This document shows, piece by piece, positions 8,538 through 53,479 of a DNA stretch of 64,000 bases (position 1 is its first letter; every line of letters starts with the position of its first letter). Below the pieces are notes generated by a model. That model was not told the DNA's origin. It ran no database searches and worked only from the letters and a program-made list of their open reading frames with translations. A program made the position numbers and the translations under genes. Location of the stretch: positions 2,767 to 66,766 of the forward strand of contig CAYPVU010000046.1 in the NCBI GenBank assembly GCA_964414295.1, read 5' to 3'. This DNA is from an uncultured Candidatus Saccharibacteria bacterium (lineage in GTDB: Bacteria; Patescibacteriota; Dojkabacteria; J137).

Positions 8538-11500
8538 TTTTTTAATATCTCCATTTACATAATCATAAAAGTACTCTAATCTTCCCCAACCTACTATGAA
8601 TCTTCTTGATTTCTTACCTAGTTTATGATCTTCTCCAGTTAAAGCTTTCCAAACTTCTTTAAACCAGTTCATACCATCTTCTAAAGTACCAGAAGTAGCC
8701 ATAGGAGATTTTAAGATTTCCATTGCTGAGCCTAAACTTACAAAGAATGTTAATTCAGATACTAATCTATCAGATATTCTTGTAACATATCTCTCAAACC
8801 AAGTATCGTCATCATCACCATCATCAGACTTTAAAACAGTTACTAAACCAATTAATGCTGTAATAACAGCCATTTCTAATAAAACTCCTTTAAGATTAGA
8901 TTTTTCCATTTCAGATAGTTCAGAGAATTTCTTTTTACCTCTTAATATACCAAAGCCTTCTCTTAATAAAGTTCTATATCTACCTTCCACCCAAGTTTCT
9001 AATACATAATCATATTTCTTAGCTCCCCATCTAGACTCAAACTGTCTAGGAATCCAGTTACGATGTTGCATTAACAATCTACCCATTATAGTTCTATTGA
9101 TAGCTGCTTTATCATTAGGGTCTAAATTACCAGTTATATTTTTAATAACATGTAATACTTTCTGTCTAAATACTGCTATTTCTTCAGTAGTTGGTTCAGG
9201 TTTATTAGGATTATTCCAAACTAATTCTCCATCTTTAATAGTATAATCATTAAAAGATATACCATATTTACCTTCTAACATCATAGCCATCATTACAGAG
9301 TTCTGTAAAGCAAATTCAGATACTTTATATAAAGAATAAAAATGACTAGTATCAAATATCTTTTTAGATTTATAAGCAGTTAATTCTTTTGCATATTCTC
9401 TACCAAAGAAACCTGTAACTATATCAAATTTCTCCATTAGTAGTTTAGCTTTTTTATCATTTTCTGTAATACCACCATTACCTAAAGTAGCATATTTATA
9501 AGCTTTACCAAAGTTTTTAGTACTATAATATTTACCTGTTATAGCAGCAAAAGAAGCATTTGTTATATTACCTAAATGATCTACAACTGGAGCAAATAAG
9601 TTTAAACCTAAGTTCTTTAAAGATGTATAAGCTATTACTTTATCAAAAGCTTTATCTAAACCATATCTTTTACCACCTATTTCTATACCAGTTCCTTCTT
9701 CTTTAGCTCTCCCATAAAATACAGTATCTATATAATCTTTTAAGTGATTATAAGTATTAGTATTATCAGCTTTCATTTTCTTAGTACCATCAGGCATAAC
9801 TGCCTCAATAGCTTGAGTTTCTTTAATTTTATCTAAAGTAATTAAAGCAGTATTTTCTACTTCTTTTAACTCTCTATATCTATAAGCACTATCAATAAAT
9901 GTATAAAGTACTTGTCCTAAATCATAAGACTTTCTTTTATCCATAAACTCTCTTCTTTCTTCTCTATTATAGAATACCATTTCTTGAGCACCTAATACAG
10001 GAATATCATTAACTCTTTCACCAGTAATAGGATTTCTTAAACCATATTCTTTTTCATCCATTGTAAATTGTAAAGATTCAGAAGCTTCTTTTGGTAATTG
10101 TTTAATAGCTTCTAAAAAGCCTATATCCATAGCTTTCTCTACAAATTGTTTAGTAAAGTTTGGAATAAAGTTACTTCTAACATCTTTCATTGGTAAAAAC
10201 TCAGATACATCATCCATAGTTTTAGTATAAAGATCATAAAACTCTTTAAGTCTAGAATCATTTTGTATTTCTAAATACTTAGGATCAGCCCAGATTTCCA
10301 TCTTAGGTTTTCTAAACTTATTATTGTTTTTATTTCTTTCTTCCCATACTTTGATATTTTCATTGTATTTCTTTTCCCAAATATTATCAGCAATTAATAA
10401 TAGTTCATCTTGTGTTCTATCTTTATATTTATCAGATTTATTAAGATTACCTAATATTTCTACTATATCATATTTCTTTCTACCTTTTAATACTTCCTCA
10501 TAATTTTTTTTAGACGTTTTATACTTTTCATCATCTTTAATTGTATTCTTAGTAAACCATTCATCATTATTACTTCTAAGAGCTTTATTAAATTCTAACC
10601 AATAAGAATATTTAACAGGAGCTACTAAATTACCTGTTTTATTACCTTCATCATCTATTTGAAGCATTCTATCAAAATCAGAACTAGTTAGGTTATTTTT
10701 ATCAATAACAGCTTTAATTTTATTTTTTAAAGTATAAGAATCTTGTCTGCTCTTTTCTAAAGCTTTAGTAACCATTTTATAAACAGAAGCTACTAAAGGA
10801 TTTTCTGATTTACTAACACCTAACCAAAATCTAGACCACATAGAAGTTTCTACTTGTGGTTGTAAAGCATCTTCAGGAGATACTATACCATTTTGTCCTA
10901 ATATTTGTTGTTTAGTTAAATTATCACTAATAATATTAGTAGCTATTTTAAGCATAACACCTTCTAATCTCTTAGCAGTACCAACTATACTATCTACTAC
11001 AGCATGATCTTTTTTAGTTTTTAATTCTTCATCTGATAATATACTATTAAGATTAGTATATAACTTTAAACTATCTTTAATATCTTGCCAATTTAAACTA
11101 GGATCAAAGTTATCATCAGTTAATAAATCTTCTATAATAAGTAAATCTCTTTGTATAGCAGGTAATATACTAGCTAATGTTCTCTGTTTCTGTAAGTTAG
11201 AAATATATGTTTCTCTTGTAGAAATAAAATCTTTTATTTTTTCTTTCTCTTTCTCATCAGTTTGTTTAGTTAATTTTCTCTCTAATATTTCTATTTGAGT
11301 TCTAAAATTATCTATCATTTCATCAATCTTAACTATACCAGTTTTTTCTAAACCTGTAGGAATAGAATTGTTATACTCAAATGATTTTAAGAAATATTTT
11401 TTAGTATTAGTAGTTTTATCATCTTGTATAGTATAAGTATTAGATATAGGTATAATACGTTTTTTAGCTACTTTAGAAGGAAGTATACCTAGTTTAGGAT

Positions 11501-13154
11501 CACCTTTTTCAAGTATCTTAACATATTCATTAATCTGAAGATTGTAACCTTTCATTTTATTTTTATGAATACCTGATTTACTACCAGGTTTAACATCATA
11601 AATATCTAAAGTACCATCTTTCCTAATAATAAGGATATCTATTGTACCAGCTCTTTTACTAGTAGTATTAGCAACCATTACTTCAGATAATACAATAGAA
11701 CCATCTTTTTTAGCCTCAGCTATAATATCAGCAATAGTTTCTATACCAGAATCAGAACTTCTAGTATTAAGTTTAGATTTTAATATACTATATATAGGAT
11801 TACTAGAATATTTAGATTCAATAGGTTTTAAATGCTTATTCTCATTAGGAAAAGCTTCTCTAATTAATTCTGATACTATTGCATGTTTTAATAACCCTAT
11901 TTGCTTTTCTCTTTCATTTTTCTCTATATCTTCTTTAGTTTGAGTAGAACCAGCAAATCTTTTATTATAATCCTCTTCTACCATTTCAGTAGGTGATTTA
12001 TAACCTTTTTCTCCTAATACTTCATATCTCTCTCCTTTAGCTCCAGTTTCATCTTTTATTATTTTAGATTGTAACTCTTGTAAAGAAGTTAATATAGATT
12101 TTTGAGATACTTCTCCAGCTTGATAAAAATCAGAATCTTCTAATGTTTGATTATTTTTTTTAGACGTTTTACCAGAGAGTATTTCAGAAGCTATATCTTT
12201 ATAAGGATTAGATACTTTATTATCAGCTATTCTAATAGCATCAGATAACTTAGTTAATCCTACATTCTTTAATATTCTTTTTAATACATTTAATACATTA
12301 TCAAACCATCTATTAGCTTTTTCTATATTAGCTTCAGTTTCTTCACCTTTAAACTGTTTAACTATATGATTAGCTATTAATTTACCAATAGCTTCTTCTT
12401 TTATCTTATCTATATTAGATGTACCATCTTCATTCTGATATGCTACAAATGAACTATATTCAGCTAAAGTAGCTTTATATATCTCATATTTAGTTATATC
12501 CTTCATCATCTTATTAAATAAAGGATTATCTTTACCTAATAATCTTACAGCAAAGTGAGCAGCTTCTTCAGATAAAGTATCTAATCTAGATTTACCTTTA
12601 ACTACTTGTATTAAATTATCTAATAACTTAGCTCTAGCTATAACATTTAAAGGATTTCCTTGAGAATCTGTTATCTCATCTAATTCTTCTACTGTTACAC
12701 CAATACTATCTAAATATTCCTTTATAATATTATCTAAGTTTTCGTTAGCATCTTCCATCATAGAAGATACTTGATAATTACCTGATTTTATTTTTTCAAT
12801 ATTAGCTTTTCTACCATTAGAATAAGTTAAATAATAATTACCATTAGATGCTTTAGCTATATCTAAATTTAATTTTTGAGCCTCTTGTCTTAGTTGGGCT
12901 ACATGTACTAAACTACTTGGAGCAAAACCACTTTGATTAATATTCCATTTATTAAGAAAAAAATTAATATCTTTTTCAGATACTTGATAAAAATCAGTAT
13001 TAATATTAAGCTCTTCTAAAGTAGGAAATCTATCATAATTATTATTCTTAGATTGCCATACAGAAAACTTAGCAGCTACTAAATATGAAGGTAATCCTAA
13101 TCTATCAGCTGCTTGTTTTACTTCAGGATGATTTTTATTTATACAAATAATCAT
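8535..13154 (-). CDS. large virion (probably ejected) protein, 1539 aa, with an acidic patch and a C-terminal transmembrane helix
   Basis: Last gene of the late operon, with a 4-nt overlap to the giant ORF. The C-terminal region has GVLLEMAVITALIGLVTVL followed by DDGDDDD. Confidence 0.45.
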   Translation of the reverse strand: MIICINKNHPEVKQAADRLGLPSYLVAAKFSVWQSKNNNYDRFPTLEELNINTDFYQVSEKDINFFLNKWNINQSGFAPSSLVHVAQLRQEAQKLNLDIAKASNGNYYLTYSNGRKANIEKIKSGNYQVSSMMEDANENLDNIIKEYLDSIGVTVEELDEITDSQGNPLNVIARAKLLDNLIQVVKGKSRLDTLSEEAAHFAVRLLGKDNPLFNKMMKDITKYEIYKATLAEYSSFVAYQNEDGTSNIDKIKEEAIGKLIANHIVKQFKGEETEANIEKANRWFDNVLNVLKRILKNVGLTKLSDAIRIADNKVSNPYKDIASEILSGKTSKKNNQTLEDSDFYQAGEVSQKSILTSLQELQSKIIKDETGAKGERYEVLGEKGYKSPTEMVEEDYNKRFAGSTQTKEDIEKNEREKQIGLLKHAIVSELIREAFPNENKHLKPIESKYSSNPIYSILKSKLNTRSSDSGIETIADIIAEAKKDGSIVLSEVMVANTTSKRAGTIDILIIRKDGTLDIYDVKPGSKSGIHKNKMKGYNLQINEYVKILEKGDPKLGILPSKVAKKRIIPISNTYTIQDDKTTNTKKYFLKSFEYNNSIPTGLEKTGIVKIDEMIDNFRTQIEILERKLTKQTDEKEKEKIKDFISTRETYISNLQKQRTLASILPAIQRDLLIIEDLLTDDNFDPSLNWQDIKDSLKLYTNLNSILSDEELKTKKDHAVVDSIVGTAKRLEGVMLKIATNIISDNLTKQQILGQNGIVSPEDALQPQVETSMWSRFWLGVSKSENPLVASVYKMVTKALEKSRQDSYTLKNKIKAVIDKNNLTSSDFDRMLQIDDEGNKTGNLVAPVKYSYWLEFNKALRSNNDEWFTKNTIKDDEKYKTSKKNYEEVLKGRKKYDIVEILGNLNKSDKYKDRTQDELLLIADNIWEKKYNENIKVWEERNKNNNKFRKPKMEIWADPKYLEIQNDSRLKEFYDLYTKTMDDVSEFLPMKDVRSNFIPNFTKQFVEKAMDIGFLEAIKQLPKEASESLQFTMDEKEYGLRNPITGERVNDIPVLGAQEMVFYNREERREFMDKRKSYDLGQVLYTFIDSAYRYRELKEVENTALITLDKIKETQAIEAVMPDGTKKMKADNTNTYNHLKDYIDTVFYGRAKEEGTGIEIGGKRYGLDKAFDKVIAYTSLKNLGLNLFAPVVDHLGNITNASFAAITGKYYSTKNFGKAYKYATLGNGGITENDKKAKLLMEKFDIVTGFFGREYAKELTAYKSKKIFDTSHFYSLYKVSEFALQNSVMMAMMLEGKYGISFNDYTIKDGELVWNNPNKPEPTTEEIAVFRQKVLHVIKNITGNLDPNDKAAINRTIMGRLLMQHRNWIPRQFESRWGAKKYDYVLETWVEGRYRTLLREGFGILRGKKKFSELSEMEKSNLKGVLLEMAVITALIGLVTVLKSDDGDDDDTWFERYVTRISDRLVSELTFFVSLGSAMEILKSPMATSGTLEDGMNWFKEVWKALTGEDHKLGKKSRRFIVGWGRLEYFYDYVNGDIKK

Positions 13155-38117: not shown

Positions 38118-38699
38118 TTATGGCTTTTTTAAAGATATTTTTTTACTAACTGAAACATTATGATATACTTCATTAAAATCTGTACTTAATCTATATCCAA
38201 ACATTAATCCTTTATTAGTGGTTAAATCTAGCTTTAAGGAAGTATTATTGAATGAATTTCTATTACCACCTACCTCAGCTCCTACCCATAAAGCATTTGG
38301 TTGATATGGTACTTTATAAGGTACTTTAACTTCTATTGTAGTAGTTTCTTTAATTAATACAGGAAATTTAGGAGTATATTCAAAGTTATTACTAACAAGA
38401 GTACCATCTACTACAGTTGTTAATACACCATCAATTAAAGTATCAGATATTGCAGATACATATCTTTTAAGATATTTAGAAGTATCTATTGGATCTTTAA
38501 TAGTATCATATACAGGTACTTTAATATAATGTTTAATTAAAGTATCTTTGGGTATAATAGTATCTCTAGTTCTAGTAATAGTACTATCTTTATAATTAAT
38601 TTCTGTATTAGTAGTAGGATTACTACAAGAATTAACTAATAGTAAATATACTACAACAATAAATAATATTCCTATAACTACGTCTTTAATGTTCTTCAT
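38118..38699 (-). CDS. lipoprotein (outer-membrane spanin-like)
   Basis: Signal peptide plus lipobox-like LLVNSC in MKNIKDVVIGILFIVVVYLLLVNSCSNPTT. Overlaps the upstream membrane-protein gene. Confidence 0.4.
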   Translation of the reverse strand: MKNIKDVVIGILFIVVVYLLLVNSCSNPTTNTEINYKDSTITRTRDTIIPKDTLIKHYIKVPVYDTIKDPIDTSKYLKRYVSAISDTLIDGVLTTVVDGTLVSNNFEYTPKFPVLIKETTTIEVKVPYKVPYQPNALWVGAEVGGNRNSFNNTSLKLDLTTNKGLMFGYRLSTDFNEVYHNVSVSKKISLKKP

Positions 38700-38979
38700 T
38701 TTCTTCTATTTTTTTATCTTTTGCTTTCTCTGTCATTATAGTATTATACCCAGCATACACAAAAAAAGTACCACTAATTGCCATTACATCAACTAAAGTT
38801 AAACTTTCATGTTTAATACAATATACTATATAAATTAAAGATACTATAATAGCTAAAGTAAATAGTACAAATCTTTCTATTCTTTTAGCTGAGAAAAAAC
38901 TCTTTTGTGAACTAAATGTTTTTAATAGTTCTTGTAAATAATTCATAAATATACTAATAAGGTTTATACTGGTTTCCAA
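38686..38979 (-). CDS. small membrane protein (i-spanin/holin-like)
   Basis: Two hydrophobic helices (FVLFTLAIIVSLIYIVYCI and VMAISGTFFVYAGY) followed by a charged tail. Confidence 0.35.
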   Translation of the reverse strand: METSINLISIFMNYLQELLKTFSSQKSFFSAKRIERFVLFTLAIIVSLIYIVYCIKHESLTLVDVMAISGTFFVYAGYNTIMTEKAKDKKIEENEEH

Positions 38980-39590
38980 ATATAATTTTTATAAATATTT
39001 CTTTTTTTAACATACTCTGAAAAAGTAGAAGGATTTACACCACAAAAAATAGCAGCTTCTTTATAAGTATTAAAAGTTTTAATATAATTATTTTGAATAT
39101 CATACATATCAACTTTTTTACTATTAGGATTATTAGAACCTGTAACATCTTTATTTAACCATTTAGGTTGAGTTCTTTTTTTACAAATTGACATTTTCAA
39201 TCTAGTTTCTAATGATATTCTTCTATTTTTAGCCTTATTTCTTATTTTTTCTACTATATCTTTATAATTGGGTAAATCTTTTATATTAGGAGGTTTATCT
39301 CCTCCTAATGAAGTATTTACTAATTTTTTATTTTTATCTTTTAATTTTTGAATTAACTCTACTTCTTTCTTATAACATTCTTCTTCAGAACCTTTAAAAA
39401 TTACTCTATATTTTATTTCACAATTTCTTTTCCTTATCCATCTTGATTTTCTAAGGTTGTATTCTTTACTGTTTTTATTCAAAGAATTATAAATATGATG
39501 TTTAAATCTTCTATCTGGATATTTAGAAACACCTAAATATTTTATCCCACTATCATCACCTAACACATAAATATAACAATTATTTTCCAT
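38964..39590 (-). CDS. GIY-YIG homing endonuclease with NUMOD-like DNA-binding modules
   Basis: N-terminal CYIYVLGDDSGIKYLGVSKYPDRRFKHH matches the GIY-(10)-YIG-R-H core. C-terminal FNTYKEAAIFCGVNPSTFSEYVKK is an HTH-like NUMOD1 segment. The gene is inserted inside the lysis cassette. Confidence 0.6.
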   Translation of the reverse strand: MENNCYIYVLGDDSGIKYLGVSKYPDRRFKHHIYNSLNKNSKEYNLRKSRWIRKRNCEIKYRVIFKGSEEECYKKEVELIQKLKDKNKKLVNTSLGGDKPPNIKDLPNYKDIVEKIRNKAKNRRISLETRLKMSICKKRTQPKWLNKDVTGSNNPNSKKVDMYDIQNNYIKTFNTYKEAAIFCGVNPSTFSEYVKKRNIYKNYIWKPV

Positions 39591-40083
39591 TTAAAAGCTC
39601 GTTTAATCTTTTTTTACTATATGGTTCATAAACAGTCTTTTTATCTTTTACATACATTAATAAAATTTGCTTTCTATTATTTTTTTTAACTGTATAAGAA
39701 GCATGAACCCACGCTATTTTATTTTTTTCAATACCTTCAGCTATTAATTGGTCAAATTCTAAATTATCTTTTATATAATCAAATATCTGTTTGTTAGTAA
39801 TACCATTATCAAATACATCAGCATCTATATCCATAGCTTCACCTAAGCAATGTTGTGAGGTTGCACTGCCTCCCATTTTTTTGTTTACTTTAGGACTTCT
39901 ATAAAATGAAGTAATAGCAATAGGTTTACCGTGCATTTCCCTTATAGGTTCAAATATCTTTTCAGCTAAAATTTTCATAGCCTCAAGGTGTTCTTGTGTA
40001 GGAGTATTATCTATTCCTAACCTTGTGGCTTGTTGAGATTTAATAGCTTCTGCTAGTGTTATATGTTTACTAACTCTTGTCAT
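39580..40083 (-). CDS. endolysin, peptidase M15 (VanY/YcbK-like Zn D,D- or L-Ala-D-Glu peptidase)
   Basis: ITSFYRSPKVNKKMGGSATSQHCLGEAMDID (SxHxxGxAxD) plus the downstream WVHAS histidine. Confidence 0.7.
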   Translation of the reverse strand: MTRVSKHITLAEAIKSQQATRLGIDNTPTQEHLEAMKILAEKIFEPIREMHGKPIAITSFYRSPKVNKKMGGSATSQHCLGEAMDIDADVFDNGITNKQIFDYIKDNLEFDQLIAEGIEKNKIAWVHASYTVKKNNRKQILLMYVKDKKTVYEPYSKKRLNELLNGK

Positions 40084-40085
40084 AA

Positions 40086-40340
40086 CTATTTCTTTCTAAA
40101 TTTATCAATAAAGTTTTTTGCTTGGGTTAATGATTCAATAATTATCTTTACAAATTTACCTGCATTAACCAAAACCACAAGGCTTAAAGATGCTAATGTC
40201 AGCAACTTAAAATACACATCATAATTATCAACTAAGTGAGCAGCTATGTTGCTAATAAAGCTCGTAGCTATCAATAATAAGCTCATTGCTAATGTTTTTA
40301 TCTCTGTATAATCCTGATTTAAGTCATGTAAAGATGCCAT
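40086..40340 (-). CDS. holin-like small membrane protein
   Basis: 84 aa with two TM helices (LAMSLLLIATSFISNIAAHL and LTLASLSLVVLVNAG) and a basic C-terminus. Lies immediately upstream of the endolysin. Confidence 0.45.
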   Translation of the reverse strand: MASLHDLNQDYTEIKTLAMSLLLIATSFISNIAAHLVDNYDVYFKLLTLASLSLVVLVNAGKFVKIIIESLTQAKNFIDKFRKK

Positions 40341-40353
40341 TGTATTTTAATTT

Positions 40354-40518
40354 TTAATTGTTATCATTAATTAATTCGTTATCCAATTCATATTTTATAA
40401 CTTCAATTATTTTTTCTTCTATTACATTATCGTTCTCATCATAGGTAATCTCCACAACTTCTCTGCGGATTAATCTACTCTCTTTAAATGTGTCGTTGTA
40501 TGCTGTTTCTGTTCTCAT
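40354..40518 (-). CDS. small acidic ORF (54 aa) not in the supplied track
   Basis: ATG at 40516-40518 (plus-strand CAT) reads MRTETAYNDTFKESRLIRREVVEITYDENDNVIEEKIIEVIKYELDNELINDNN and fills the gap between holin and upstream gene. Confidence 0.2.
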   Translation of the reverse strand: MRTETAYNDTFKESRLIRREVVEITYDENDNVIEEKIIEVIKYELDNELINDNN

Positions 40519-40519
40519 A

Positions 40520-41689
40520 TTATCTTACAAAAGCTGTTGGTAGTGCTCTTGATGCAGGTAAAACTCTGATATTAGTTTGAGCTGGCAATGTTGGATCTGT
40601 AATTCCTGAACTTGATAAGGTTTGTGCTAAAAAATGAACGTATCTTGTAATACTTCCTGATGTAAGGTTGAATCCTAAAAAAGATAAATCAAAGGTCATT
40701 CTCTGCCAAGAGCCTGACGTATTTGAATTTGTAATAAGCACTAAATACAACTCGCCTTTTCTTAGCACAGTATCAGTTATTACAACAGTCTTTACCCCCG
40801 TTGTATTTGTCGAAAATTCACCTCCATCGTGAATTAATGTTGCTGTATAAGCGGCATTACCTATAATTTGGCTATCTATTCTATACAAACTCATTCTACC
40901 TGTTGAACCAGATGTTTGAGCTGTTTGTATTCTACAACCTAAACTATTTATAGTTTGTCCATTACCTATTACAGGTGTAACAGAACTTCCGGGGTTTACT
41001 GCACCGTTATCAAATGATAATACCTTAGTAAAATTCCACCAAATAGCAGATGAATGCCATCTATGCACCATTCCTGCGTCCAACCAATCAGTAACCATTT
41101 CCACTTTTTCAGGATTGGTAAACGGAGTTTCACCAGCGTTAAGCGTTTGTCCTGGTAAAACTTCGTATATCCTTAAATCTCCAAAGATTGAACGCCAAAT
41201 AAATTTTTGTCCTTGTGTGAAACTTCTTGAAGAACTCCATGTAAGTAACTTGTCTTCATCATCTATTCTCTCATCTTCAAGTATATTATTAACTACAAGG
41301 TTATTGTAATCAATAGCTTTAATTTTTAATACATAGATTAACGCAACAGGGAAACTACTTGGTGTGCCACTAAGAGTATAATTGCCCAACGCATCAAAGC
41401 TGGAGACAACCACATCAACTCCAAGACTTGTCTTTGGAAGAATCCCCGTAGGCTGCCCGTTTGCATCCACTTGCGAAACATACGCATCCACCCCATTAGG
41501 GAATTGGTCGAGTAAGATTGTTGCTCCTTGTGGTATCGTGATTGTTCCACTTGCTGCGCTAATTGTTGTAAAATAGACGATTTTGTATTCATTGTTTTCT
41601 AAAGTTAATACACGATTATTTAATCCAGATAAATTCTGAATACTATCAAAAGTAGCAGTAAAAGGATTAAATGTAAATTTTAAAGACAT
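40520..41689 (-). CDS. receptor-binding / tail-fibre-tip-like protein (389 aa) with GC content well above its neighbours
   Basis: Gly/Ser/Thr/Asn-rich beta-type sequence. The nucleotide composition is visibly GC-richer than the rest of the window; overlapping ORFs called on both strands here reflect that (fewer stops). Confidence 0.4.
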   Translation of the reverse strand: MSLKFTFNPFTATFDSIQNLSGLNNRVLTLENNEYKIVYFTTISAASGTITIPQGATILLDQFPNGVDAYVSQVDANGQPTGILPKTSLGVDVVVSSFDALGNYTLSGTPSSFPVALIYVLKIKAIDYNNLVVNNILEDERIDDEDKLLTWSSSRSFTQGQKFIWRSIFGDLRIYEVLPGQTLNAGETPFTNPEKVEMVTDWLDAGMVHRWHSSAIWWNFTKVLSFDNGAVNPGSSVTPVIGNGQTINSLGCRIQTAQTSGSTGRMSLYRIDSQIIGNAAYTATLIHDGGEFSTNTTGVKTVVITDTVLRKGELYLVLITNSNTSGSWQRMTFDLSFLGFNLTSGSITRYVHFLAQTLSSSGITDPTLPAQTNIRVLPASRALPTAFVR

Positions 41690-41691
41690 AA

Positions 41692-41919
41692 TTAATTACT
41701 AAATTGAACAGAACTTAAACTATAACTACCAGGACCTCCTATATAACTTAATTTAGCTTTAATAGGAGCTTTACCATAAGATACTGAACTCCAAGTAACA
41801 GTATCTATTCTTTCATCATCTGTTCCTTGATTTAAATAAGTAATATCTATTTTACAATCTTCATATTGTAATATAGTATTAACTCTAGGAACATTTAGTT
41901 GTATTGTTTTATTATCCAT
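41692..41919 (-). CDS. hypothetical small virion protein
   Basis: 75-aa ORF. Confidence 0.3.
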   Translation of the reverse strand: MDNKTIQLNVPRVNTILQYEDCKIDITYLNQGTDDERIDTVTWSSVSYGKAPIKAKLSYIGGPGSYSLSSVQFSN

Positions 41920-41920
41920 T

Positions 41921-42514
41921 TTAATAGCTGCTTACAATTGACCATTCAGTTCCATTAAAAATTATTGTTCTAGACGAATACTGAGCATTTAAATTAAAAG
42001 AGTTAGCACCATCTATTGTTTTACCACCTCCACTAATAGATACAGTATTTACAGAATTATCTATTCTTTTTAAATAAAATATTTTACCAGTTGTAGGATT
42101 TGCTGGTAATTTAAGATCAACATTAAACGCAGTTGCATCTACTAAAATTAAACCATAATTTTCAGATATTATATTACTATTACTATAAGTAAATGGTACT
42201 ATAACACTACCAGGTAAATTATTAATTATTTGATCTACATATTGTTTAGTAGCAGCATGCATGTTAGATGAAGGATGTGCATGTAGAGTTAAAAACCCTG
42301 TCATTGTATCTCCAGCTTTAGCTACTTTACTATTATTTAAAGATGAATCGCCATTAGATCTATCAGTAATTTCTTGCTGTATAGCAGCATTGACAGAAGC
42401 TAATAAGTTTTGTACAGTAATAATATAATTATTACCAGATCTAACAAAAGGTATAACATCATTAGAATTTGGAGTATTTTCTACAGTAAATTGGGATATT
42501 TTCTTATCAGCCAT
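41921..42514 (-). CDS. hypothetical tail-associated protein
   Basis: 197-aa ORF in the fibre gene cluster. Confidence 0.3.
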   Translation of the reverse strand: MADKKISQFTVENTPNSNDVIPFVRSGNNYIITVQNLLASVNAAIQQEITDRSNGDSSLNNSKVAKAGDTMTGFLTLHAHPSSNMHAATKQYVDQIINNLPGSVIVPFTYSNSNIISENYGLILVDATAFNVDLKLPANPTTGKIFYLKRIDNSVNTVSISGGGKTIDGANSFNLNAQYSSRTIIFNGTEWSIVSSY

Positions 42515-42515
42515 A

Positions 42516-43340
42516 CTATTGATTATTTTCAGTTTTTATAAAAGAATTATTTTCTTGAAGTATATAATTACCATCTTCTTGAATTATTCTAAAAAATGTA
42601 AATATACTTTCATCTGTTAAAGTAGGATCTATATATTGAGAACCATAAGGAGCAAAACATAATCCACATAGTTTAGCTACATGATCCCATATTTTATTAA
42701 CTTGTATTTGAGTAAGACAATTAATATCAGCTCCATCATTACCTTCTTGCATATTTCTAATATCAAAAGATATTAGATAATCAGTATCTGTTAATACTAC
42801 AACAGGATAACCATTTATTATATTATCAGTACTTACAGAATAAATAGTAATAGTGTCTACACCATCAAATATAGCAGTATAATCTTCAGGTGTACTAGTA
42901 TTATTATTTATCTCATCCATAATAGATACTAATAAATCATACAAGTCATCATTAACTGCTACAACAGAACATATCAGAACTCCATTAATATAAAGTTCTA
43001 CAGTTTCTCCTGTTATTATAGTACTATTTTTAGCTAATCTAAAAGAACCAACAGATCTTGAAGGTGTTTCTGTTTGATAACATTTTAAAGCATCATAATA
43101 AGCTACTAAAACTTCTAGTGTTAATTTATCTTTTTCACAAGATAATCCTAGTTTTATTTTATCTGCTAATTTAGAAGCTTTATCTGCTATACAACAAGAC
43201 ATCTTGTGTAATCTAACTAAATGATCTTTATTTGTAGCTTTATTATAACTTAATATAATATTGGCATTAGTTATTGTAGGAGATGACTCTCCCTCACTTA
43301 TTCCTCTACCTGGAGAAGATATGTTTAAAGACTTACTCAT
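42516..43340 (-). CDS. hypothetical tail-associated protein
   Basis: 274-aa ORF. Confidence 0.3.
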   Translation of the reverse strand: MSKSLNISSPGRGISEGESSPTITNANIILSYNKATNKDHLVRLHKMSCCIADKASKLADKIKLGLSCEKDKLTLEVLVAYYDALKCYQTETPSRSVGSFRLAKNSTIITGETVELYINGVLICSVVAVNDDLYDLLVSIMDEINNNTSTPEDYTAIFDGVDTITIYSVSTDNIINGYPVVVLTDTDYLISFDIRNMQEGNDGADINCLTQIQVNKIWDHVAKLCGLCFAPYGSQYIDPTLTDESIFTFFRIIQEDGNYILQENNSFIKTENNQ

Positions 43341-47796: not shown

Positions 47797-49245
47797 TTAA
47801 ATTGCTTGTGAGAAAATCATTTCAGCACAACTCATTGGATTCTCAATTAAGATCCCTTGATTAGCCATACAATGTAACTCATAACCATCTACAGCAGATG
47901 CAGCAGAAGATTTGAAAGATACATTTGGACCATAAGGGCTAGTAGAACCAGCAATGTGCCACATGTTTTCTTTACGTCCTTTAGGATATACTCTACGAAT
48001 ATTACTTTTACCTTTGTTAGTACCAAAGTTTAAGATAGTATAACGGTAGCTTTCAGTTGGGAAACCATCTGGATGTAAAGTACGGTTAGTTACTACGTTA
48101 TCATACTCAGGTAAATGAGCAAGAGTAAATTTAATACCTTGAGGTCCACGGTATTCTACATATTGACCACCAAATCCTAAGTTTTGTCCTGATCCAAATA
48201 CACGTTTAGAATCTAGAGGCTGGAATACAGCAACTTTATTTTCTAAAGCTTTGTGGAACTGAACCATACCAGCTTCACCAGTAAATGCTATAAAATGACG
48301 TTGATCTTCAGGTAAAATGTTTACAGAAAGATTCAATAGAATGTCAGTTAATAGATCAATAGTAAAGTTAGTGTAATTAAACTTATAAGCAGGTGAAATT
48401 TGCTGACGTAAACCAGCTCCTTCAATGATTGGGAATCCTGATTCACCTTTCATAGTATAAGTACCATTAGCATTCTTATTAGATTCAGAATACAATAAGT
48501 TACGGTTTTTCTCTTTATACCATTGACAGATAAATTCCCATTCTGCGTATTGTGTCCAGATTTTAGTAGATTTATTAGATTTAGGATCTAACATTTCAAT
48601 TACTACAGGACGAGCGTGCATATTACCAGGAACAGTATAAGTCTTTCTTAGAGTAGAGAAAGCATTACGCATTTTGAAAGGAGAAGTGAAGCTAGTTTCG
48701 CCAGCTGTTCTTGATAATGTTCTTTCTTGATTAGAATACTCTTTAGAGAATTGTCTACCAGCTGTTAATAGTGCAGGAGGCATAAATGCTGTAGGATCAC
48801 CAGTCATCATTTGAACACGGTAAACCCAGTCAGTACCATTAGAGAAAGGCTCTTCCATTACACGTACACGGAAGCTTCTATCATCAGCTACCAATACATC
48901 AGTGTAAGCAAAATATTTCTCAGGGAAAGTGATCTCAAACATAGTGTTGTTGATACCAGGACGGTTCATATCAGAAGCAGAATAACCTACTACTGGAACA
49001 GCCTTCTCATCATCACCTTTTAAGAACCATTCATAATCGTTATCTGTAGGAAGTTCTTCTTCAGCTCCTAGCATAGATAACCAATAATCAAGACCTGTAT
49101 ATTGGTTAAGACCAAATACTCTTGACATAATATTGGATACTAAAGTTGGTTGTTCTGCGAACATAGTACCCAAGTGATTGTCGGTTGTTAGACCTGACCA
49201 TGACTTGCCTTCATATAGTTGAAGGGTGTTAATTTTTTGTGCCAT
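47797..49245 (-). CDS. major capsid protein candidate (482 aa)
   Basis: Position TerL-portal-acidic scaffold-this gene. Size and GC-richer composition fit an HK97-fold major capsid protein of crAss-like phages. No sequence-level confirmation possible. Confidence 0.45.
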   Translation of the reverse strand: MAQKINTLQLYEGKSWSGLTTDNHLGTMFAEQPTLVSNIMSRVFGLNQYTGLDYWLSMLGAEEELPTDNDYEWFLKGDDEKAVPVVGYSASDMNRPGINNTMFEITFPEKYFAYTDVLVADDRSFRVRVMEEPFSNGTDWVYRVQMMTGDPTAFMPPALLTAGRQFSKEYSNQERTLSRTAGETSFTSPFKMRNAFSTLRKTYTVPGNMHARPVVIEMLDPKSNKSTKIWTQYAEWEFICQWYKEKNRNLLYSESNKNANGTYTMKGESGFPIIEGAGLRQQISPAYKFNYTNFTIDLLTDILLNLSVNILPEDQRHFIAFTGEAGMVQFHKALENKVAVFQPLDSKRVFGSGQNLGFGGQYVEYRGPQGIKFTLAHLPEYDNVVTNRTLHPDGFPTESYRYTILNFGTNKGKSNIRRVYPKGRKENMWHIAGSTSPYGPNVSFKSSAASAVDGYELHCMANQGILIENPMSCAEMIFSQAI

Positions 49246-50486: not shown

Positions 50487-51044
50487 TTATCCAAACGTTA
50501 TTATCTTATACCAAATCTTTGCTTTAAGCGTACCGTCACCGCCTGTTGGGTTAGTACTATTATATGTTGTTAATTCCACATTATTACCTATTCCATTTAT
50601 TTGATTTTGTAATGCTAAGTTTGTGTCGATAGTATCAAGCAATCCTCCTGAATTATTTGAAGCAATAATTGCAGTATTAAATTGCATTATTATTAATGTT
50701 TTGTGTATATACGCAGAATAATTATTAAATGCTAAGTGGTCGTTTTCTAACGTATATGGTACTGTTCCGTATGTATATTCTAAAGCTATTTTGTTAATAT
50801 CGTAATATTCGTTTGTGTTTGGAGCTGGTAACAACTCAATTGGTGTACTACCCATGTTTAAAATCTGACTTGAAGTAATATCTACTTCTGTATAAGTCCA
50901 TTCAGATTCTTGATTATCATTAGATTGTAAAGATTCTATTTCAGATTTAATAGTTAATAAATCTTCTATATATTCTTTTCTATTAATTGTTTGTAAAGGA
51001 GTATTTAAACGTCTTTTTATAAGTCTATTAATATTTGAGATCAT
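50487..51044 (-). CDS. hypothetical virion protein
   Basis: 185-aa ORF, overlapping the portal stop. Confidence 0.3.
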   Translation of the reverse strand: MISNINRLIKRRLNTPLQTINRKEYIEDLLTIKSEIESLQSNDNQESEWTYTEVDITSSQILNMGSTPIELLPAPNTNEYYDINKIALEYTYGTVPYTLENDHLAFNNYSAYIHKTLIIMQFNTAIIASNNSGGLLDTIDTNLALQNQINGIGNNVELTTYNSTNPTGGDGTLKAKIWYKIITFG

Positions 51045-53479
51045 TATTTTTTAGGTTTAGGTTTATTTTTAGCAATTTGTTTTTTAGCTTCTATTTCTTT
51101 TTCTTTAATTTCTTTTTGTGTTTTTATCTTTTCTCTTTCAAGATTAGCTCTATCTCTATCAATCATATCTTGATTCATAGATTGTTGTTGTTCAAAAGCA
51201 AATCTTCTTTCTTCTAAAGATAATTTAGCTAACTCAACAGGATCAGGGATACCGTTACCATCAGTATCCAATTCAGATTGTCTATTAAACGCAGCTATTT
51301 CAGCAACTTGTATTTTAGTTTGTCTATCAGCTTCTTTGTTCCAATCATCTCTATCCATTTTTTCTCTTTCAAAAGCTATCATATCTTGCTGCATTTGAGC
51401 TTGAGCTTGTTGCTGCTGTTGTTGTTGAGCTTGCATTTCTTGTTGTCTTCTCTGTTCAGCTTGAATGAGTTTATTTTTAATATCAGCCAAAGACTCACTA
51501 TTAAATATAGATATAATATCAGATAATGCAATTTGGTCATTCTGCATTGCTGCATGTGATAATTGTTTTAAAGTTTCTATTGCTTGATGATCTTTAGAAG
51601 AATTAGTTAAGAATACTCCATATTCAGCATCGTTAAATAATTCACCATCTACAGAAAAAAATACAGTAGCTAAATCATCTGTTATATATTGGAATTTTTT
51701 AGTTTTACCTTCAGATATAATATACTTAGCTGTTTCAACTAAAGTTTCTACAACTCTCTTTTTAACATCATTATGTATAGTAAACCATTTTTCTGTAATA
51801 TGAGCAGATTGTACAACAGCTCTTTCAACATTACCTACTAACTCACTAGAAGATACTGCTCCCATACGCTGTGGAGTTACTCCACTAACATTATATAATT
51901 TCTGTTCTACAAATTCTAATAAGCTAATATATCCTTGTATTTGATTTCCAGTTTCTAAATTTAATTCTCCAGATTGACCAGACATATTACCAGCTAATTT
52001 ACCAGTAGCAGCTCCTTTTTTACCTTCTTTAAAACTATCTACAAAAGCAAATTTCATTGATGTAGCATAGTATAACCACTTATCTATTTCCCAACCTTCA
52101 GGTATCATAGCTAAATCTACTTTAGCTATTTTTCCTTGATTAGCAGCTAGTAATAATTCTGTTCTATACCAAATAACTACATAAAGATATATCCAAGGGA
52201 TTAGTCTATCCATTAAAGAAATAGATTGACTATTATTAGCATTATATATTGTTCCTACATATCCAGATTTACAAATAGATATATTATCCATTCTTCTAAA
52301 CTGAACAGGTCTAGGACGCATATTCACATAAATATCAGTACCTATTTTAGTACCTTCCCAATATTCATTTATCCATAACCATTCTATAGAAGAATCTGGA
52401 TCTTCTTTATCATGTTTATAAAGTTCATCTACAAGTAATTCCTGTTGTTCACCATTTTCATCTAAAAATGTAAGTTTACCAACTTTACGTCTAGACTTCC
52501 AAACTACTTTACAAACTCTTACATTATTAGCTTCGTCAAAATTAGCTTGAGCAGCTTTACCAGATAGTACATCTTCTTCTCTTTGTATAAATAATTTATA
52601 AGGTTCAGTATAACCTAATAGTTGTTTATTAAGAGCATTTTTATTACCATTCCATTCTTCTAATAAATCTATATCAGATTTAGATAAACTATCATAAAAA
52701 GTATCTATTACTTGTCCTATAGACATCCAAGTTTCTTCTACAATGATATCTGAATCATCTATATTATCAGAATTAGGATTTAATGTGCAATATATTTCAG
52801 TAGGATTAACTCTTCTTACAGAAGGTTCATCAGCTACTATATCAACACAATAAATTTCTTCACCAGCTATTAAAGAATCTTCCCAACCCTTTAAAAATAA
52901 CATATCTAAATTAAGATATCTTCTAAAATATTGAACTATTTTAGTAGCTATAGATTCTCTCATATCTTGATATTCATATGAGATATATTTTTGTAATTCT
53001 TCTGGTGTAGGAGGAGGATTTTCTGGATCAACACTTTCAGGATCAATATGAGCCATTAGCATTTGTTCCAACATTTGTATTATTAACTCTTTTTGCTTTT
53101 TTTCTTTATCAGAAATAACATCTTCATTAATAGCTCTTATAATAAAATTAAAAGGTCTTTTAGCTTCTTCTCCAAATAATAAATTAAATATTGGAGATAC
53201 AATATCGTAGTATTGTAGATTAGCAGGTAATTCTAAATTATCTAAACCTAGAGGATTACATACATACTCTAAATCTGTTTTATCTAAAATACCATTGTAT
53301 AAAGCATAGTTTCTTAACTTTCTCCATTTAGGAGAACGTCTAGTATTATCATATAACCCTACTATACCAAGACCTGAATCAACACAAGCTTTAGCCCATT
53401 CTTCATTTTTTTCTCTTCTTGATAACTTTTGTCTAGGGAAATTATTTTGATGTTCCATTTTATTAGCTAATAAAAACAA
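51044..53479 (-). CDS. portal protein candidate (about 805 aa) with a poly-Q / lysine-rich C-terminal tail
   Basis: Sits directly downstream of TerL and is of crAss-like portal size. The true start is probably the ATG at 53458 (MEHQNN...); the track start at 53479 is a TTG. C-terminal QQQQQQQAQAQMQQ...KPKPKK. Confidence 0.45.
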   Translation of the reverse strand: MFLLANKMEHQNNFPRQKLSRREKNEEWAKACVDSGLGIVGLYDNTRRSPKWRKLRNYALYNGILDKTDLEYVCNPLGLDNLELPANLQYYDIVSPIFNLLFGEEAKRPFNFIIRAINEDVISDKEKKQKELIIQMLEQMLMAHIDPESVDPENPPPTPEELQKYISYEYQDMRESIATKIVQYFRRYLNLDMLFLKGWEDSLIAGEEIYCVDIVADEPSVRRVNPTEIYCTLNPNSDNIDDSDIIVEETWMSIGQVIDTFYDSLSKSDIDLLEEWNGNKNALNKQLLGYTEPYKLFIQREEDVLSGKAAQANFDEANNVRVCKVVWKSRRKVGKLTFLDENGEQQELLVDELYKHDKEDPDSSIEWLWINEYWEGTKIGTDIYVNMRPRPVQFRRMDNISICKSGYVGTIYNANNSQSISLMDRLIPWIYLYVVIWYRTELLLAANQGKIAKVDLAMIPEGWEIDKWLYYATSMKFAFVDSFKEGKKGAATGKLAGNMSGQSGELNLETGNQIQGYISLLEFVEQKLYNVSGVTPQRMGAVSSSELVGNVERAVVQSAHITEKWFTIHNDVKKRVVETLVETAKYIISEGKTKKFQYITDDLATVFFSVDGELFNDAEYGVFLTNSSKDHQAIETLKQLSHAAMQNDQIALSDIISIFNSESLADIKNKLIQAEQRRQQEMQAQQQQQQQAQAQMQQDMIAFEREKMDRDDWNKEADRQTKIQVAEIAAFNRQSELDTDGNGIPDPVELAKLSLEERRFAFEQQQSMNQDMIDRDRANLEREKIKTQKEIKEKEIEAKKQIAKNKPKPKK

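Follow-up and report, generated by a model that had tools for sequence, protein, structure and literature searches.

We analysed a 64,000-nucleotide stretch of DNA (the window) that derives from an uncultivated crAss-like phage with a mean GC content of 27.3%, a dsDNA phage of ~86 kb that carries its own holin-like, M15 endolysin and lipoprotein-like genes. On the minus strand, a gene at 40520..41689 encodes, in what is here called frame 0, a 389-aa product whose N-terminal beta-sandwich domain is conserved and whose C-terminal part varies. The gene lies upstream of the lysis genes, with collagen-like and fibre-like genes on one side and a holin-like ORF/M15 endolysin cassette on the other. 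Downstream of it, on the same strand, are an acidic ORF of 54 aa (ORF54; 40354..40518), a holin-like ORF of 84 aa with two hydrophobic segments (40086..40340) and the M15 peptidase endolysin gene (39580..40083; Pfam Peptidase_M15_3, 4e-17; PHROG endolysin, 3.5e-31). No tRNAs were found, and in a search for a diversity-generating retroelement (template/variable repeat pair) no repeat family involved 40000-41700.

The 389-aa protein is of the tail-fibre or receptor-binding type, being encoded among fibre genes and keeping its N-terminus while its C-terminus varies. Pfam contains no family for it, and two matches to PHROG 'tail protein' families are weak (aa 240-324, E 4e-5 and 1e-3). AlphaFold2 predicted a beta-rich fold with pLDDT >90 for aa 30-140 and a C-terminal model of low confidence; a Foldseek search against viral models matched fibre-like proteins with low TM, and a search of the PDB, crAss-like virion structures included, gave no matches. 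The product is rich in Gly, Ser, Thr and Asn (G+S+T+N 35% vs 26%) and depleted in Lys and Glu. A protein search returned 161 homologues. The N-terminal domain (N-domain; aa 21-143, 41261..41629, minus strand) recurs with 60-75% identity in over 100 proteins, 230-650 aa long, whose C-termini are unrelated. Among GenBank phages there was no match to the locus by megablast or to the whole protein or the N-domain by tblastn, and a first scan of viral contigs with a single protein query confirmed nothing. The original prediction of a Gly/Ser/Thr/Asn-rich, beta-type product among fibre components agrees with our results, and the relatives that it proposed to seek by protein homology did not appear among GenBank phages.

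Base composition and the exchangeable part of the fibre gene

The GC content of the fibre gene is 36.2%, which among 1170-bp windows ranks at the 99.4th percentile, and 300-bp windows range from 35 to 40% GC inside the gene and from 21 to 29% in its flanks. The rise is unevenly distributed: codons 1-30 have 22% GC, codons 31-116 (258 bp, about 41342-41599) have 45.0% and codons 117-389 have 35%, with a peak of 50-52% in 120-bp windows at 41380-41559. A GC content far above that of the neighbours had been predicted for the gene as a whole, and while the rise is present, the predicted value of 45-50% holds only for codons 31-116. The GC content at third codon positions (GC3) was 0.231, compared to 0.093 expected (z=11.5), the largest deviation among the genes of the window, and among the four-fold codons of the gene those ending in T make up a fraction of 0.36, the lowest of all genes with at least 40 such codons. 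From the amino-acid sequence and the codon usage of the genome a GC content of 31.3% is predicted for this gene, so that about half of the excess (about 45%) comes from amino-acid content and about half is synonymous. As the sliding-window and codon-usage plots proposed at the outset brought out, GC is not uniform and codon usage is atypical across 40086-41689; raised GC3 continues downstream through ORF54 (0.28) and the holin-like ORF (0.27) into the first half of the endolysin gene, where a sliding GC3 of 0.20-0.23 marks the 3' limit of the block.

Two sibling phages, represented by loci L002 and L003, allowed the locus to be compared between near-identical genomes. The N-domain is 97-98% identical to that of L002 and has not been swapped, whereas the C-terminal part and ORF54 differ. 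L002, a relative with 99% identity, has no homology to the C-terminal stretch beyond about 41100, with flanks that are 97-100% identical; in L003 the C-terminal stretch has 54-76% nucleotide identity, and most of the flanking sequence has 98-100%. The slot of ORF54 (GC3 0.278) holds an unrelated 69-aa ORF in L002, while in L003 ORF54 is kept at 85-95% identity. The variable C-terminal region (aa ~130-389; 40520..41300, minus strand; 35% GC, GC3 0.205) and ORF54 thus form an exchangeable cassette in which both are swapped together. ORF54 has no family matches in Pfam or PHROG, and small ORFs likewise lie 3' of the fibre gene in other loci; ORF54 may be a fibre-specific assembly partner.

The cassette also differs in its codons: four-fold codons that end in T account for 0.38 in the cassette vs 0.61+/-0.08 in the backbone, and those that end in G or C for 0.14 vs 0.00-0.08 in genes with 40 or more four-fold codons. 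Fibre cassettes of distinct composition also occur in related phages, for example in L007 compared with L004. Atypical codons together with replacement in relatives, the marks of a compositional island, are found for about 40370-41300 only and do not extend to the N-domain. This codon usage suggests that the cassette is of foreign origin. A higher-GC phage had been proposed as the donor; neither the protein search nor GenBank phages yielded any donor lineage, and the only homologue of the C-terminal domain among 5.8 billion proteins was P0004, which is encoded in L003, at 27.8% GC.

The holin-like ORF behaves differently from ORF54. Its GC3 is raised in all three siblings (0.274 in the window, 0.306 in L002 and 0.294 in L003), and because it is 95-98% identical to its counterpart in L002 and 93-97% identical to that in L003, the first few codons excepted, it has not been swapped. 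No significant alternative-frame ORF lies within it, and overlapping ORFs as the source of the raised GC3 of both ORF54 and the holin-like ORF were rejected, none being significant. The raised GC3 of the holin-like ORF (0.27-0.31) is accounted for neither by dual coding, which is taken up below, nor by the exchange of the cassette.

A conserved open frame within the N-terminal domain

The original prediction listed three ORFs inside the gene (41115..41309, 41338..41592 and 41382..41576) and regarded them as spurious. All three exist. The second of them, at 41338..41592 on the minus strand, is read in the +1 frame of the fibre gene and consists of 84 codons plus a stop; it begins with MNTKSSILQQLAQQVEQ, ends with IILLVAHQVVSLLR and coincides with the 45-52% GC core of the gene. 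For this ORF the label of spurious is contradicted by the comparison of homologues, in which its frame is conserved under selection, and we refer to it as a candidate overlapping gene. Its ATG spans the Asn-Glu codons of a conserved LENNEYK motif and its stop falls at a conserved ALIY motif. As a separate observation, the conserved Asn-Glu pair, in a genome rich in A and T, largely dictates this ATG.

The +1 frame was open in all 44 distinct DNA homologues (43 plus L049, an out-of-sample homologue with 40% identity), which have amino-acid identities of 36-97% and come from genomes of 27-39% GC. The nested ORF is about 81-87 codons long across these homologues, and the open +1 stretch measures 81-92 codons in the divergent loci L004-L019. 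In the window this stretch reaches 86 codons, the longest of any gene, the 4074-aa gene reaching only 43. A stop map of the 43 distinct sequences showed the +1 frame free of stops from the conserved start to the conserved end, with dense stops on both sides, while the +2 frame was full of stops. Of the sites at which a +1 stop could occur, 21 of 515 inside the interval carried a +1 stop, all at its two edges, compared to 365 of 569 in the flanks. In every sequence examined, an ATG lies close to the 5' limit of the open stretch; the dipeptide context that forms it takes five different forms, and in L047 and L048 the canonical ATG is replaced by a downstream one.

Synonymous sites of the fibre frame are constrained over the same interval. 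The excess of same-codon identity was 0.235 inside the nested ORF, compared with -0.04 and +0.04 on either side of it. When synonymous codons were permuted at the codon usage of the domain itself, p was 0.0012 in the window and <=0.012 in 12 of 14 loci, the exceptions being L006 (p=0.055) and L012 (p=0.04), in the latter of which the tested stretch missed its internal N-domain. When codons were resampled with the codon usage of the genome, no equal was obtained in 5000 trials for 9 of the 14 loci, and p was <=0.014 in the others; as the homologues are mutually related, these per-sequence tests of the +1 ORF are not fully independent. In addition, GC3 of the N-domain was raised in every low-GC phage that carries the domain, with values of 0.19-0.33 on backgrounds of 0.08-0.10. 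The nested ORF thus combines the features expected of overprinting, namely excess length, a conserved start and stop, and synonymous constraint in the host frame inside the overlap.

The other two listed ORFs, both on the plus strand, are by-products. One of 64 codons (41382..41576) lies inside the GC core, where no antisense frame stays open (0-1 of 43 homologues stop-free). The other, also of 64 codons (41115..41309), lies within a 129-codon open stretch at 40920-41306, for which permutation gave only p=0.037 and which shrinks to 45 codons in L003. Both ORFs and the longer stretch were rejected as genes since they are not conserved.

The predicted product of the nested ORF is small, basic and Gln-rich, with a hydrophobic C-terminal segment of ~20 residues. 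Across homologues the peptides start with MN(T/I)KS, followed by a polar, Gln-rich stretch; for the phage in the window, SSILQQLAQQVEQSR and EQQSYSTNSLMGWMR are among the predicted tryptic peptides. No homologue of the nested peptide was found in a search of 5.8 billion proteins, no match was found against 1.84 billion representative proteins by word-index search or full HMMER, and there was no match in Pfam. Two weak matches were obtained in PHROGs (E 0.008 and 0.077), both to families of unknown function, and the ORF was never met as a stand-alone gene. The hydrophobicity of the C-terminus is no greater than the frame-0 sequence imposes (p mostly >0.05), so a role at the membrane is read from the sequence only; selection for a hydrophobic C-terminus, being indistinguishable from the frame-0 effect, was dropped.

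The region around the nested start is A-rich and weakly structured, which is permissive only. Among the homologues we found no conserved internal promoter motif and no conserved Shine-Dalgarno-type signal before the nested start. A Bacteroidota-type motif, TAnnTTTG, was considered as an internal promoter and treated as chance because it is limited to the window lineage.

Probable dual coding and its alternatives

The account that we favour, and regard as quite likely to be correct, has two layers: the GC-rich core is a nested overlapping gene and the rest of the gene belongs to an exchangeable cassette. Over the core (about 41338-41599) the DNA would be dual-coding, with the N-domain of the fibre in frame 0 and the conserved ORF on the same strand in +1. 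The third positions of frame 0 would then serve as the second positions of the nested frame, leaving no codon position free to drift towards A/T, which would explain why GC3 rises to about 0.37 in the core, as is usual for second codon positions. GC3 rises likewise in every phage with the N-domain module, whatever its background GC, and the double constraint could account for the unusually high conservation of the core. In the remaining 35% GC part of the gene, the excess would come partly from a Gly/Ser/Thr/Val-rich and Lys/Glu-poor content and partly from foreign-like codons. The cassette would be bounded by the end of the conserved N-domain and by the start of the holin-like gene, and would presumably be exchanged by recombination. 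Receptor-binding modules are usually swapped between phages as such cassettes. The N-domain is probably a tail-attachment module that also provides the 5' homology arm for cassette exchange.

We infer that the nested ORF is translated. Internal initiation on the fibre mRNA may yield its product at a late stage, and a membrane function in the timing of lysis or the exclusion of superinfecting phages is a guess. Going further, we give a little better than an even chance to the proposal that the ORF is a clade-wide overprinted gene for a small membrane-targeted protein with its own role in infection, and that the frozen segment acts as a homology arm for swapping cassettes.

The original prediction, that the whole GC-rich gene was recently acquired as a host-range cassette from a phage infecting a host of higher GC, is unlikely, even though a part of it survives. 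Codon usage is atypical across the block, fibre cassettes with foreign GC3 occur in related phages, and comparison of the slot across relatives showed that the C-terminal two-thirds and ORF54 are indeed exchangeable. However, the GC peak lies in the N-domain, which the same comparison showed to be unswapped and whose GC3 is raised in every low-GC carrier. The sharp GC change falls at the limits of the +1 ORF (from 22% in codons 1-30 to 45% in codons 31-116) and not at a recombination break, and synonymous over-conservation is confined to the ORF and absent from adjacent conserved codons. Moreover, none of the 44 homologues combines an N-domain GC3 at background with +1 stops, and no higher-GC donor was found.

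Less likely still is that the +1 frame is reached by programmed frameshifting from frame 0, which would yield a short alternative product of the fibre N-terminus. The forced nature of the ATG and the lack of a conserved promoter or Shine-Dalgarno-type signal among homologues would fit such a mechanism. Against it, a +1 stop precedes the ATG by two or three codons in most sequences, and L047, L048 and L049, in which the canonical ATG is lost or followed closely by stops, carry a new ATG directly after the last stop; no slippery heptamer is evident in the sequence.

It is very unlikely that the segment is a nucleotide-level element (an RNA structure, a recombination or packaging signal, or a protein-binding site) of which the open +1 frame is a side effect. 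Its over-conserved synonymous sites and its position at a recombination boundary are consistent with such an element, but the effect is restricted to one frame, with stops in the +2 and all three antisense frames, and permutation that keeps the segment's own codon usage still rejects chance. RNAalifold over 16 lineages found no conserved RNA structure in the N-domain region (z=-1.0), the start region of the nested ORF folded no better than shuffles as a single sequence (z=-0.27), and Rfam gave no match below E=0.2.

We consider it highly improbable that the raised GC3 reflects translational selection for high expression: the major capsid gene (47797-49245) has a similar GC3 (0.226), but it reaches this value through C-ending two-fold codons and CGT, it favours T-ending four-fold codons, of which the fibre gene has the lowest fraction, and G/C-ending four-fold codons make up only 0.03 there compared to 0.20 across the fibre gene and 0.40 within the overlap. 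That amino-acid content alone sets the composition of this beta protein rich in Gly, Ser and Thr, as in capsid genes, had been named beforehand as an outcome that would overturn the prediction. It is scarcely credible, since amino-acid content, with a high GC2 of 0.44 and much Gly, Ser, Thr and Asn, explains under half of the excess, GC3 exceeds its expectation with z=11.5, and the rare codons GCG, GGG, GTC, GTG and ACG are in use.

Comparison with known systems

A nested gene combined with an exchangeable cassette, as favoured here, has partial counterparts in several known systems. In the Rz/Rz1 pair of lambda, where the o-spanin is nested in +1 within the i-spanin gene, a small same-strand ORF likewise lies wholly inside a larger late gene, is conserved with its host gene and adjoins the lysis cassette. 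The present case differs in that the host gene encodes a tail fibre, the hydrophobic segment is C-terminal and there is no similarity to known families. The nested peptide has neither the N-terminal hydrophobic signal nor the lipobox Cys of an Rz1-type o-spanin; it also does not resemble a holin, as no charged tail follows its hydrophobic segment, which runs to the C-terminus, and it matches no holin family.

With protein E of phiX174, encoded inside D, and protein L of MS2 the nested product shares its short length, its hydrophobic segment, its origin in an alternative frame of a gene for structure or assembly, its unusual composition and a lack of homologues beyond its clade. Those proteins belong to tiny ssDNA and ssRNA phages without endolysins, whereas the phage described here has a large dsDNA genome and lysis genes of its own. 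The transmembrane helix of protein E is N-terminal, in contrast to the C-terminal hydrophobic segment of the nested product.

The conserved N-terminus and hypervariable C-terminus, the break at a domain boundary and the small downstream ORF swapped along with the fibre resemble modular receptor-binding proteins (T7 gp17-type, T4 gp37/gp38, P2 H/G); the differences are that no sequence or fold relation to any solved fibre is detectable and that a chaperone role for ORF54 is putative. With horizontally acquired compositional islands the locus shares a local deviation in GC3 and codon usage and a difference between close relatives. Unlike in such islands, the strongest deviation lies in the most conserved, non-exchanged part and can be accounted for by coding.

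Well-known cases of gene overlap come from very small phages and from the Rz/Rz1 lysis genes. In large dsDNA phages, to our knowledge, overlapping genes have seldom been recognised, and within the literature searched we found no report of one in crAss-like phages. A compositional oddity that resembles horizontal transfer may instead mark dual coding, which calls for caution in GC-based island calling in AT-rich phages and suggests a simple screen for hidden genes, in which local GC3 peaks are combined with alternative-frame stop maps. If the nested product is real, it would be a further, so far unannotated protein of a phage group that is abundant and poorly understood, and would tie a frozen coding segment to the boundary at which host-range cassettes recombine. 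The candidate nested gene, which gene callers never report, is carried by an uncultivated crAss-like clade sampled in aquatic and other metagenomes.

Composition of the fibre gene

The window (27.3% GC overall) encodes a crAss-type major capsid protein, ring proteins, a muzzle protein and giant proteins of 1539 and 4074 aa, and is therefore a crAss-like phage. Its capsid protein shares at most 36% identity with that of any GenBank phage, a search for a DNA match to the fibre locus among GenBank phages found none, and contigs carrying the fibre protein are ~86 kb in size. The fibre gene (40520-41689, minus strand; 389 aa) is preceded by a series of collagen-like and fibre-like genes and is followed, in order, by a 54-aa ORF (40354-40518, minus strand), an 84-aa holin-like ORF with two hydrophobic segments (40086-40340, minus strand), an M15 endolysin gene (39580-40083, minus strand) and a GIY-YIG endonuclease gene.

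The GC content of the fibre gene is 36.2%, the 99.4th percentile among same-length windows, and 300-bp windows within it range from 35 to 40%. The original prediction had estimated 45-50% GC by eye and read the gene as a recently acquired host-range cassette; the GC observation was partly confirmed, in that the rise is real and the figure is too high for the gene as a whole. When the codons of each gene were resampled from genome usage with the protein sequence held fixed, the expected GC of the fibre gene was 31.3%, so that ~45% of the excess is due to amino-acid content and the remainder is synonymous. GC3 was 0.231 against an expected 0.093 (z=11.5), a deviation exceeded by no gene in the window, and it stays raised downstream, at 0.28 and 0.27 in the two small ORFs and then into the endolysin gene. 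Along the fibre gene, GC3 was 0.07 in codons 1-30, climbed to 0.43 near codons 45-120 and later settled at ~0.2. By segment, GC was 22% in codons 1-30, 45.0% in codons 31-116 (GC1 0.52, GC2 0.45, GC3 0.37) and 35% in codons 117-389, with a maximum of 50-52% in 120-bp windows at 41380-41559; the estimate by eye is therefore right for this 258-bp core only.

The capsid gene is the only other gene in the window with a similar GC3. Its bias favours two-fold codons that end in C, CGT, and four-fold codons that end in T; G/C-ending four-fold codons are at 0.03 there, compared with 0.20 in the fibre gene, where the T-ending fraction is the lowest among genes with at least 40 four-fold codons. Since the two biases differ in kind, translational selection was rejected as the cause. 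In the capsid gene itself (47797-49245, minus strand), CGT makes up 68% of Arg codons versus 5% in the background, and TTC, ATC, AAC and CAC are raised with four-fold codons still T-ending, a bias of the translational-selection type. A 185-aa gene (50487-51044, minus strand) is also atypical in codon usage, with GC3 at 0.178 (z=4.0) and T-ending codons making up 0.38 of its four-fold codons versus a mean of 0.61.

The nested +1 frame of the N-terminal module

Among 5.8 billion proteins searched, 161 matched the fibre protein, nearly all of them over residues ~21-143 only, at 55-76% identity; these are proteins of 230-650 aa with unrelated C-termini. Residues 169-389 matched a single protein, P0004, encoded in the sibling phage L003, and the C-terminal 200 residues as a separate query found nothing beyond it. 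Thus, the gene consists of a conserved N-terminal module and a variable C-terminal part. Its frame-0 product behaves like a modular receptor-binding fibre, with no relation detectable to the solved fibres.

The GC core coincides with an ORF of 84 codons in the +1 frame of the fibre gene (41338-41592, minus strand), which had been set aside as spurious; its conservation contradicts that view. Across the N-module, the +1 frame is open for 81-92 codons in all 11 divergent IMG/VR loci, while the other frames vary. The set was enlarged with metagenome loci to 43 distinct DNA sequences at 36-97% amino-acid identity to the window, and among 17 representative lineages the pairwise nucleotide identity of the overlap was 50-87%. 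A codon-alignment stop map showed zero +1 stops from the conserved ATG, which spans the Asn-Glu codons of LENNEYK, to the conserved stop at ALIY, with a +1 stop every few codons on either side and a +2 frame full of stops. The ATG arises in five different dipeptide contexts across the set. In the two most divergent loci (L047 and L048), the canonical ATG is lost or early stops are present, and both have a replacement ATG seven codons further along, from which the frame is open as far as the usual stop. A homologue at 40% identity (L049), recovered afterwards from bacterial genome assemblies and used as an out-of-sample case, has an ORF of 70 codons that ends at the same place.

Synonymous codons were shuffled within the first 150 codons, which leaves codon usage, and with it the raised GC3, unchanged. 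The longest +1 stretch expected under this permutation was 34-55 codons; p was 0.0002-0.012 in 12 of 14 loci, 0.055 for the divergent locus L006 and 0.04 for L012, where the stretch tested did not include its internal N-domain. Resampling from genome usage (5000 trials) produced no equal in nine of the 14 loci, and p was 0.0008-0.014 in the other five. Among window genes the nested ORF is the longest +1 open stretch; the 4074-aa gene reaches 43 codons. At sites where a synonymous codon could make a +1 stop, stops were found at 21/515 inside the interval versus 365/569 (64%) in the flanks of the same genes, and those inside lie at its two edges on the stop map, some lineages ending two codons early or starting late. 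Where the amino acid is identical, identical codons exceeded the usage expectation by 0.235 in the overlap versus −0.04 and +0.04 in adjacent conserved codons; thus, synonymous sites are constrained within the ORF, whereas those outside it have reached saturation. This pattern argues against a recent spread of the whole module, and likewise against an open frame of chance origin that was simply inherited.

None of the antisense frames is kept open in the homologues (0-1 of 43), and a 129-codon antisense stretch midway along the fibre gene is interrupted in L003; the two plus-strand ORFs, also called spurious, are therefore by-products. No conserved RNA structure was found (RNAalifold z=-1.0; local fold z=-0.27), an Rfam search gave nothing under E=0.2, and no repeat family pointed to a DGR. 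We hold with high confidence that the nested ORF is maintained by selection and, with moderate to good confidence, that it is a translated gene.

How overlap would raise GC, and the predicted product

In a +1 overlap, frame-0 third positions serve as nested second positions and frame-0 first positions as nested third positions, so that with both products selected no position could absorb the strong A/T pressure seen elsewhere in the genome (GC3 ~0.10). The core GC3 falls within the second-position GC range of this genome (0.30-0.45). Dual coding predicts a raised GC3 wherever the module occurs, and the data agree: in carriers, module GC3 was 0.19-0.33 on backgrounds of 0.08-0.10, with no contrast where the background is already 0.3. 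Amino-acid identity was 0.64 inside the overlap versus 0.42-0.45 beside it, which can be explained by double constraint. The main GC signal is thus best explained by a conserved overlapping gene, the very ORF that had been discounted.

The predicted product is a basic protein of 70-87 aa, in which the first ~60 residues are polar and Gln-rich and the last ~19 are hydrophobic (Kyte-Doolittle 1.7-3.2, except in the divergent locus L019). This hydrophobicity is not above what the frame-0 sequence yields with background codons, and we take it as a feature of the peptide rather than evidence of selection. The peptide had no match in Pfam and only weak matches to PHROGs families of unknown function, and protein searches found no homologue. 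It lacks a lipobox and the charged C-terminal tail typical of holins, and membership of the spanins or holins fails on the features examined. The product may be a membrane-associated accessory protein that is made late, through internal initiation on the fibre mRNA, and its position and composition could suit a role in lysis timing or exclusion; our confidence in any specific function is low. The closest analogues are nested phage genes, for example Rz1 within Rz, together with the lysis genes that are overprinted in phiX174 and MS2, all of which share this architecture; however, host gene, product topology and sequence all differ here. The literature searched yielded no account of overlapping genes in crAss-like phages.

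Cassette exchange and neighbouring loci

The horizontal-transfer reading was partly supported, for the C-terminal cassette only and not for the main GC signal. The sibling phage L002 matches the window at 97-100% identity on either side and at 97-98% through the N-module, but is unrelated from ~41100 to 40370 (the C-terminal domain and the 54-aa ORF), having a 541-aa fibre and a 69-aa ORF in that place. L003 is 98-100% identical over most of the flanks, 54-76% identical in nucleotides over most of the swapped stretch and 85-95% over the 54-aa ORF. The 5' break (~41300) lies just beyond the nested ORF, at the end of the conserved module, and the 3' break lies at the start of the holin-like gene. 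We interpret this as a cassette exchange of a putative receptor-binding domain with its small partner ORF. The cassette has a GC3 of ~0.20, with four-fold codons shifted from T-ending to A- and G-ending, a composition that fits a gene pool common to phages of higher GC3; among related phages, background GC3 reaches 0.35. The search with the C-terminal part named no donor. A clear case of a composition-distinct fibre cassette is provided by the closely related loci L007 and L004, both with background GC3 of 0.03-0.10: in L007 (9932-11501) GC3 is 0.23 in the fibre gene and 0.29 in the next, 138-aa gene, versus 0.11 and 0.06 in the L004 counterpart (9938-11567).

The holin-like ORF is not swapped and is 93-98% conserved except in its first few codons, yet its GC3 is 0.27-0.31 in the window, L002 and L003; no ORF in its alternative frames is significant, and neither cassette nor overlap explains its raised GC3.

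A second mosaic patch (41900-42300, minus strand), the C-terminal half of a 197-aa fibre-like gene (41921-42514), is 98-99% identical to L002 and 66-90% to L003, the L003 neighbours on either side being 95-100% identical. In L003 (1647-2997), a frameshift divides the fibre gene into products of 228 and 229 aa, and the gene also has an extra middle segment of ~90 aa not in the window; either an assembly error or a pseudogene could account for this. The start region (43237-43337) of the gene at 42516-43340 has an indel relative to L002, giving a product of 274 aa in the window and 242 aa in L002. The GIY-YIG homing-endonuclease-like gene (38964-39590, minus strand; Pfam GIY-YIG 1.7e-4) separates the endolysin gene from the one that comes next, and belongs to an insertion (~38972-39671) present in the window and absent from L002 and L003. 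The final ~100 bp of the endolysin gene are 69% identical between the window and its relatives, with products of 167 and 155 aa, respectively. On the 3' side of the lysis genes, a 193-aa product (38118-38699, minus strand) has an N-terminal hydrophobic segment ending in LLLVNSC, resembling a lipoprotein signal, with PorP/SprF as its sole, weak match (E 0.011); it could be a spanin-like component. The only N-module homologue from bacterial genome assemblies, L049, is on a 28-kb contig (JAOZMN010000004.1) binned in a Bacteroidales MAG, a weak hint about the host. Finally, the portal gene (51044-53479, minus strand) has unusually long open stretches in two alternative frames, 62 codons in +1 (p=0.003) and 97 codons in antisense r0, the latter a length matched in 0 of 300 permutations.
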